In this document: in pieces, positions 28,489 to 29,099 of the stretch
How the letters are laid out: each line of letters begins with the position of its first letter
Numbering within the stretch: position 1 is the first letter of the stretch
Assembly: GCA_044892525.1 (NCBI GenBank)
Contig: CM097885.1
Span: forward strand, 11,906,001-11,970,000
DNA length: 64,000 nucleotides
Source of the DNA: Schmidtea polychroa
Lineage: Eukaryota
Direction: 5' to 3'
Notes under the pieces: model-generated
The model's input: only the letters and a program-made list of their open reading frames with translations
What the model was told of the DNA's origin: nothing
Databases searched by the model: none
Made by a program: the position numbers and the translations under genes

Positions 28489-28764
28489 ATTAAAATATTT
28501 TTTTACGGATGTCTAACAATAAAATAAGATAAACATTACAAGCTTTGTAATACCCAGTGCAAATCTCAATAGTAGACTAGTTTCGAGCTTTTCGCTCTCA
28601 TCAGTACCATGCAGGAGACGTGAAGATTTCTCTTCGCGCCAGGTAAGTATACAATATTGCTGATTCAACTCTACTGCATACTTTACCTGATACACTAGTC
28701 TATTATTGAGATTGTAATGTTTATCTTATTTTATTGTTAGACATCCGTAAAAAAATATTTTAAT
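28489..28764 (-). mobile_element. Family B HHR-bearing element in fold-back arrangement, abutting (ATT)n
   Basis: Minus copy 28489-28697; inverted arm 28694-28764 repeats the post-ribozyme tail (ACTAGTCTATTATTGAGATT...GTTAGACATCCGTAAAAAAATATTTTAAT). Confidence 0.85.
28569..28610 (-). ncRNA. Canonical minimal type-I hammerhead ribozyme (family B, intact)
   Basis: Minus strand ATGGTA CTGATGA GAGC GAAAA GCTC GAAA CTAG TC TACTAT: full CUGANGA/GAAA/UH core, 4-bp stem II, palindromic ACUAGU stem III, 6-bp stem I with one G-U, GUC cleavage triplet. Confidence 0.92.
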
Positions 28765-29099
28765 CCATTAAAAGTTAGAAATGCTAAAGGTTTACGGATG
28801 AACTTGTAAACAGTTTCTGTGTATGACGGTGTCTCCAGAGGCGAATATGATTTTTCCTACGCCATGTTTACAAGTTTGCAGATATTTGTTCCTGTGATTT
28901 TGCGAATTTGTAAGTGATGTAATTTCCAGTGTAACAGGGAAAGTATGTAATAGAGTTGAATCAGCAATATTGTATACTTACCTGGCTCGAAGAGAAATCT
29001 TCGCGTCTCCTGCATAGTACTGATGAAAGCCAAAAGCTCGAAACTAGTCCACTATTGAGATTTGTACTGGGTATCACAAAGCTTGTAATATTTATCTTA
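28765..29099 (+). mobile_element. Second family B copy (putative Penelope 3' end / pLTR) ending in (TTA)n
   Basis: 28928-29099 is collinear with the minus copy at 28520-28697; the upstream part has an extra hairpin AACTTGTAAACA/TGTTTACAAGTT. Confidence 0.8.
29014..29055 (+). ncRNA. Hammerhead ribozyme, family B, slightly degenerate
   Basis: ATAGTA CTGATGA AAGC CAAAA GCTC GAAA CTAG TC CACTAT; core intact, mismatches at the first pair of stem II and of stem I. Confidence 0.85.

Follow-up and report, generated by a model that had tools for sequence, protein, structure and literature searches.

Probable decayed insertion of an abundant ~370-nt non-LTR retrozyme, likely placed in trans by a Penelope-like enzyme

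The enzyme that moves animal retrozymes is the subject of a hypothesis that rests on co-occurrence and on likeness to pLTRs, the end repeats of Penelope-like elements (PMC7229834; bioRxiv 10.64898/2026.07.22.740005). PMC7229834 lists platyhelminths among the phyla with such repeats, and its accessible text names no planarian; no report of a planarian retrozyme, or of a U1-like arm in one, was found in the open literature, whose supplements may list it. An axolotl motif with the same helix III as the one described below is a poor self-cleaver by itself and an efficient one in dimeric form (PMC7229834), and in vitro cleavage was seen in only one of nine predicted Xenopus retrozyme dimers (bioRxiv 10.64898/2026.07.22.740005). 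The minimal form of the hammerhead has a short helix I, a long helix II and an extra base before position 10.1 (PMC4209133). Penelope insertions are described as a partial tandem with an adjacent inverted, truncated copy and a tail (PMC8557442), and a palindrome is found at the inverted junction (PMC3846280). For PAc, the Poseidon element of Anolis, the enzyme cuts at ATT, extends both strands and uses uncleaved RNA as template (PMC11167929); subtraction of values given in that paper places priming 85-92 nt past the ribozyme cut.

The locus described here lies in a 64,000-nt stretch of DNA, referred to as the window, which is 24% GC and contains long AT microsatellites. The locus is quite likely a decayed insertion of an abundant ~370-nt non-LTR retrozyme that would be cut as a dimer and was likely inserted by a Penelope-like RT/GIY-YIG enzyme acting in trans. 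Its parts, and a further copy elsewhere in the window, are as follows.

28336-28491, plus strand: (ATT)n target tract, left half, which becomes degenerate towards its outer side
28489-28696, minus strand: whole of copy 1, inverted and 5'-truncated, with a tail reaching 83-86 nt beyond the cut site into the tract
28569-28610, minus strand: canonical type I hammerhead of copy 1, with an intact core and a cut predicted between 28575 and 28574
28618-28639, minus strand: GAAA-tetraloop hairpin of copy 1, with one C.A mismatch
28640-28689, minus strand: 50-nt hairpin of copy 1, its 3' arm at 28640-28650
28694-28699, no strand: inversion junction with the helix III palindrome at its centre; the last three letters of the junction are at the same time the first of copy 1
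28694-28764, plus strand: half-ribozyme and tail, comprising the 3' half, with GUC at 28698-28700 and a 22-nt deletion
28701-29049, plus strand: monomer from cut site to cut site, 349 nt, or 371 nt with the deleted 22 nt restored
28926-29070, plus strand: structured ribozyme domain of copy 2, an outer 8-bp helix around two hairpins and the hammerhead
28935-28984, plus strand: 50-nt hairpin of copy 2, within the outer 8-bp helix
28985-29006, plus strand: GAAA hairpin of copy 2, within the outer 8-bp helix
29014-29055, plus strand: hammerhead of copy 2, damaged at 29027 and 29050
29050-29098, plus strand: tail of copy 2, reaching 49-52 nt beyond the cut site
29099-29173, plus strand: right half of the (ATT)n target tract, with the polarity of the left half
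56684-56820, minus strand: copy 3, a separate and more diverged insertion (77%) whose 5' truncation falls within the 50-nt hairpin

Copies 1 and 2 are the two arms of one insertion in one (ATT)n tract. The two halves of the tract have equal polarity, and the locus is therefore one insertion in one microsatellite, with the 3' ends of both arms pointing outwards. The insertion marks are a partial tandem, an adjoining inverted and truncated copy, a tail, and a microsatellite target; a target duplication is unreadable within (ATT)n, and an LTR pair was not seen. The sequence-only reading had counted three copies, overlooking the half copy at 28694-28764 and treating the two arms separately, and had implied a unit of ~150 nt. 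The actual unit is ~370 nt, and is put at 371 nt because the half copy lacks 22 nt that other tails have. Copy 2 carries its GUC at 29047-29049. The half copy is identical to copy 1 at 70 of 71 compared letters, and the corresponding differences (1/71 for the half copy against copy 1, 13/174 for copy 2 against copy 1) are not significant (Fisher p 0.07), leaving one template unit for copy 1 and the half copy and another for copy 2 as no more than a hint. With 93% complementarity between the two arms, RNA transcribed through the whole locus is predicted to fold into a single long duplex that has no ribozyme stems; indeed, every ribozyme stem has probability 0.0 in the read-through fold. For the same reason, and because they lie on opposite strands, copies 1 and 2 were rejected as partners in a dimer ribozyme. 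The locus in the window is probably inert.

The hammerhead motif itself is real. Positions within it follow the standard numbering scheme. Copy 1 contains CUGAUGA, GAAA and GUC, a full canonical type I core as first read. Helix I has 6 bp, G10.1-C11.1 closes a helix II of 4 bp, and the palindrome ACUAGU stands at helix III, before the cut. A hammerhead descriptor gave one match in the 64-kb window and none in 300 windows simulated with a second-order Markov model. The motif is predicted to self-cleave its RNA. Copy 2, taken earlier to be near-intact, has the CUGANGA/GAAA/NUH core but is not intact where it matters: G10.1 is replaced by A (29027), and an A.C mismatch lies beside the cut (29050). 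Its hammerhead is likely inactive. Copy 3, which had been recognised as a deleted copy, lacks 7 nt of helix II and the core. The first letter of loop 2 is G in copy 1 and C in copies 2 and 3. The stability of the ribozyme core alone is unremarkable (z -0.7 and +1.5). Across the whole window, Rfam gave no hammerhead match up to E=1; with a 601-nt stretch, Hammerhead_HH9 matched both copies 1 and 2 weakly (21.1 bits, E 0.013, and 16.2 bits, E 0.47, against a gathering threshold of 52), and Hammerhead_1 was absent among the seven matches listed for that stretch. In the sub-threshold Hammerhead_HH9 alignment, the internal loop beyond helix I and the CAAAA loop 2, candidate partners of a tertiary contact between loops 1 and 2, align, with copy 1 having G at the first loop position.

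Both hairpins lie upstream of the core, as the sequence-only reading had it, and the strand bias it proposed for the 50-nt hairpin held up: folding gives z -6.7 and -5.0 on the ribozyme strand versus -2.2 and -1.9 on the opposite strand. Copy 1 folded whole behaves similarly (z -3.8 on the ribozyme strand versus -1.0 on the other), and copies 2 and 3 folded whole are unremarkable (z -1.5 and +0.2). Two differences between copies 1 and 2 that keep pairing had also been offered as structural support. These are two of 13 differences, and they are private to single copies. Nine of the 13 fall at paired positions, where four keep the pair and five break it in one copy; the differences are mostly private changes and are best read as drift, so they were rejected as covariation.

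How widespread is the unit? Eleven runs in five studies match the stretch, none of them recorded as RNA, and four (X1, X7, X9 and X10) were compared, all as contigs, over 28668-29103 at 80% likeness. X1 is a run of the same species label. In X1, 11,239 records match the unit, versus six in X10. The summed depth in X1 reaches up to 3.5 million, versus 87-334 for the eight single X1 records listed, which suggests on the order of 10,000 family copies, summed depth not being a copy number. Loose ends in X1 supply the missing 22 nt (44 records) and the continuation of the tail (41 records). The unit is repeated head to tail with one hammerhead per unit, both in the partial tandem of the window and in contig joints, for example an X1 joint from 29101 to 28736. 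Record 9 of X10 (322 nt) covers 28937-29101 and runs onward into 28771-28877, and records 10 and 11 span 28848-28966 and overlap record 9 by exactly 30 nt at both ends, giving a closed loop of a kind that either tandem DNA or circular RNA would produce. Arrays of three or more units were seen neither in the window nor in the contigs. Strand inversions make up seven of the 15 X1 joints shown (of 43). The depth in X1 climbs across the 50-nt hairpin from 1.3 to 3.3 million and drops at 28758 from 1.7 to 0.79 million. Such a profile is expected if 5' truncation within the hairpin, as in copy 3, and an end ~80 nt past the cut are shared by many copies; it is also shaped by letters private to the window copy, which may account for part of the step at 28758. 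At 28936, G accounts for 1,122 of 1,736 depth in X7, 125.5 of 125.5 in X9, 64.5 of 94.5 in X10, and 6,857 of 172,735 in X1. That letters dominant in X7, X9 and X10 are rare in X1 is a weak hint only, these runs being RNA by guess and a strain difference being possible. One subfamily, dominant in X10 and rare in X1, differs at 28824-28836 by several letters and a short insertion. Motif pattern scans of viral contigs, metagenome contigs and prokaryote genomes found nothing.

Variation within the family bears on the fold. Majority letters in X1 restore copy 2 at 28948, 28987, 29027, 29050, 29058 and 29065, with G10.1 at 96.5% of depth and U1.1 at 98.5%. With these letters, 53 of the 54 drawn pairs form, five of them G-U; the structure model was derived from the same sequences that were later used to judge its pairs. 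A helix II closed by G10.1-C11.1 and a helix I of 6 bp are found in copy 1 and the family majority but not in copy 2. Among the 40 variant rows shown (of 48), 14 lie in the structured domain, 11 of them at paired positions, and on the ribozyme strand each of the 11 alternative letters pairs. Switching between Watson-Crick and G-U pairs is seen for four minority alleles, and one makes a new pair; A at 29058 (19%) breaks the pair as drawn. T at 28948 has 2% of X1 depth, and 28950 has no variant row among those shown. Two-sided compensation was not found among the 11 variants listed at paired positions, and since all are one-sided the support for the fold is modest. Could the two hairpins instead be an 80-nt spliceosomal intron (28938-29017 in copy 2) that ends in helix I, with splicing switching the form of the ribozyme? 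The donor position reads GT in copy 1, the acceptor position in copies 2 and 3 reads AG and follows a pyrimidine run, and an intron of the Drosophila virilis Penelope ends at helix I (PMC4209133). However, the donor T is a minority letter (154,986 of 513,248 depth in X1, 326 of 3,100 in X7, 0 of 94.5 in X10), no such joint occurs among the 15 shown of 43, and X7 record 19 and X10 record 9 cross the interval unspliced, leaving the intron scarcely credible.

The non-LTR retrozyme reading draws on the make-up of the unit: its length is within 170-400 nt, it is repeated head to tail, non-coding and below 50% GC, it has many copies, and its monomer is self-paired. Its GC content is 34%, its longest ATG frames are 24 aa (plus) and 52 aa (minus), and tblastn with 16 proteins found no coding trace in it. 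Self-pairing of a 344-nt stretch gives z -2.2 to -2.3, with 1-2 of 100 shuffles equally stable; this comparison covered 28706-29049, 5 nt short of the monomer, and the full 349-nt fold was made without shuffles. As a circle, the full unit folds at -74.9, versus -58.8 for the antisense. The 15.1-16.1 pair has probability 0.0 in the monomer, self-pairing of the helix III palindrome is worth -4.8 kcal/mol, and a double-hammerhead fold scores -19.6 versus -1.4 for one monomer fold. Because the monomer cannot close helix III and the palindrome is able to pair between units, we infer that multimers cleave as double hammerheads, as in systems already described (PMC4209133; PMC7229834).

A possible course of events can be built on what the data show, namely the head-to-tail unit, its abundance, the majority fold, insertion at one ATT target, an inverted arm, and tails that extend beyond the cut site. 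First, a few intact loci would be transcribed as multimers. Second, two palindromic helix III halves would pair, and cleavage after GUC would yield monomers. Third, a host ligase, an RtcB-type enzyme, may circularise the monomers. Fourth, a Penelope enzyme would cut both DNA strands at ATT, with each end priming within the tail of an RNA that is either uncleaved or circular, ~50 and ~80 nt past the cut site. Finally, a 3-nt microhomology within the palindrome would let the two cDNAs join in head-to-head orientation. A linear monomer cleaved at both ends cannot have been the template, because both tails pass the cut site.

These same tails, together with the placement of both ends in one ATT tract, speak against the view of the unit as a SINE-like repeat or satellite, amplified at the DNA level or spread by a LINE, in which the hammerhead would be a passenger. 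Such a repeat would account for the lack of any Penelope sequence link to the unit, and LINEs also produce inversions, twin priming with microhomology being known. Nevertheless, the three window copies have no poly(A) end and are dispersed and 5'-truncated, and the unit has no match to Pol III A or B box patterns, so this alternative is very improbable.

What does the window contain of Penelope elements? Searches by tblastn with relatives located remnants at 22905-23924, 40926-41516 and 60532-60693, which comprise RT-thumb/linker and GIY-YIG parts; the relatives of the window RT piece are proteins with RT plus GIY-YIG. A first homolog search at near length gave one match, and Pfam, run on 105 frames, assigned no family to the window Penelope pieces. 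Two of the three remnants have inverted arms. The remnants are separate insertions, 4.6, 11.8 and 31 kb from the unit, and share no sequence with it; their nearness was rejected as linkage. The closest of five related loci, L001, is 70% identical to the remnants over 287 nt and 87% over 61 nt, and its best DNA match to the unit has E 0.24. L001 holds a nearly whole Penelope-like ORF at 3-2237 (744 aa, 5' end open), with a minimal hammerhead at 2309-2349, 75 nt after the stop codon; this motif is much like the Schmidtea mediterranea motif in the supplement of PMC4209133. On its other strand, 2234-2822 is, by eye, a calmodulin-like frame. Decayed minimal-hammerhead end pieces like those of L001 lie in the window at 34710-34785 (plus) and, as an inverted pair, at 36747-36866. 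In two more related loci, minimal-hammerhead-like matches (L004 3153, L005 2987) lie downstream of distant Penelope-like RT pieces. Two kinds of hammerhead therefore coexist in the window, as in coral, mussel and axolotl (PMC7229834).

The unit differs from an autonomous element: it has no RT/GIY-YIG ORF, and its helix lengths are canonical, not minimal. Mobilisation in trans is proposed because the closest Penelope relative has a different, minimal hammerhead. The sequence-only reading had seen a self-cleaving module mobilised by the Penelope RT/GIY-YIG machinery whose remnants lie nearby. The retrozyme class, the palindromic helix III, the insertion marks and the reality of the remnants stand; the helix lengths, in contrast, are canonical, the remnants are separate insertions, and the motif of L001 differs. 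That reading was correct on the class and probably also on the enzyme.

An unlikely alternative within the Penelope world is that the unit is a pLTR end repeat, or an internally deleted derivative, of an unseen autonomous Penelope-like family carrying this hammerhead. Every insertion mark is of Penelope type, Xenopus retrozymes resemble pLTRs (bioRxiv 10.64898/2026.07.22.740005), some Penelope elements have palindromic helix III variants (PMC4209133), and X1 depth dips to 0.10-0.26 million at 28893-28937. However, X7 and X10 records bridge the dip and the loose ends there follow the same path, and among the 20 X1 loose ends shown (of 396) there is no shared point at which the path leaves for unrelated long sequence. 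The unit has no coding trace and the Penelope family seen in the window has a different, minimal motif, though the rows beyond those shown might contain a rare parent.

The 3' arm of the 50-nt hairpin (28640-28650 in copy 1) is identical to the 11-nt 5' end of U1 snRNA, which is its binding end (PMC12527174), and reads as a perfect splice donor on the opposite strand. This 11-mer occurs in the window only in the three copies, and ~0.0001 such matches are expected in 371 nt, the motif having been chosen post hoc. In copy 1 the whole arm is paired, whereas most of it is open in the 5'-truncated copy 3; among the rows shown, no variant falls within it, versus three at or next to the arm that it faces. 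Its likeness to U1 may be chance, or may mark what is left of a splice donor on the antisense strand. Derivation of the element from U1 or U4 was rejected, with no U1 match and a U4 match of 18 bits (E 0.09, gathering threshold 46). In the antisense hairpin region, weak U4 snRNA matches (28863-28994 minus, 18 bits; 28630-28756 plus, 11.8 bits) are probably chance. A bolder and distinctly improbable reading is that a planarian retrozyme, whose RNA a rare master subfamily expresses as a circle, hijacks Penelope enzymes although it shares no end repeat with them, and that its arm mimics the U1 5' end in caged form. If so, truncation at insertion would often uncage the arm, the genome would contain thousands of perfect splice donors on one strand and free U1-like arms on the other, and host splicing could be altered.

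Other features of the window are listed here in their own right. Two mir-753-like hairpins lie 660 nt apart at 1768-1829 and 2431-2490 (plus; 61.7 and 52.4 bits, gathering threshold 62); mir-753 being a planarian miRNA family, they suggest a planarian-type flatworm as host. A 392-aa open frame with a hAT transposase dimerisation domain (62825-64000, minus) runs off the window. Palindromic MITE-like repeats occur at ~660, 8882-9003, 14687-14908, 15915-16150, 32490, 44167, 44959 and 51014-51162, and coding fragments are Dymeclin-like (1093-1452, plus) and actin-like (37885-38157, plus).

What are the implications? A retrozyme-type unit bears insertion marks that were defined biochemically for a Penelope enzyme, yet its ribozyme is unlike that of the resident Penelope family. 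Because the class, the ribozyme and the dimer model have already been described, what this locus adds is one more example, and a test bed. If the host is a laboratory planarian, knock-down of the Penelope RT, of RtcB or of the retrozyme RNA would test mobilisation and function.

The unit can be set against four described systems. First, Rfam Hammerhead_HH9 (RF02275, clan CL00010) aligns with the window copies in its core, helix lengths and C/A-rich loop 2, whereas the copies score far below the gathering threshold (21.1 and 16.2 bits against 52) and lack a stable helix III. Second, Poseidon PAc (Frangieh et al. 2024, PMC11167929) shares the ATT target and, on the course of events proposed above, the extension of both strands, tail priming downstream of the cut and the use of uncleaved RNA; in contrast to the window unit, it is autonomous and its ORF starts in the ribozyme, whereas the core-ATG frame of the unit stops after 11 codons. 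Third, Penelope pLTRs with minimal hammerheads (Cervera and de la Pena 2014, PMC4209133) have the same type I topology and weak palindromic helix III, and also opposite-strand copies a few hundred bases apart and 5'-truncated, dispersed ends. The window unit differs in its 6-bp helix I, its 4-bp helix II, the lack of an extra base before 10.1 and the lack of an ORF; the Schmidtea motif of that study resembles those of L001 and the window pieces at 34710 and 36747-36866, not the ~370-nt family. Fourth, metazoan non-LTR retrozymes (Cervera and de la Pena 2020, PMC7229834; Li, Clavereau and Pollet 2026, bioRxiv 10.64898/2026.07.22.740005) are alike in their non-coding, head-to-tail units of 170-400 nt, canonical type I hammerhead, GC content below 50% and thousands of copies, and in coexisting with Penelope elements that bear minimal hammerheads. 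A mussel family of 350-390 bp is similar in size, and the axolotl HHR_Amex1 has a helix III like that of the window family. Set against these retrozymes as described in the accessible texts, the window copy has the Penelope-type inverted arm, tails and ATT target, and in its family helix I is immediately preceded by two hairpins and an 11-mer identical to the U1 end.
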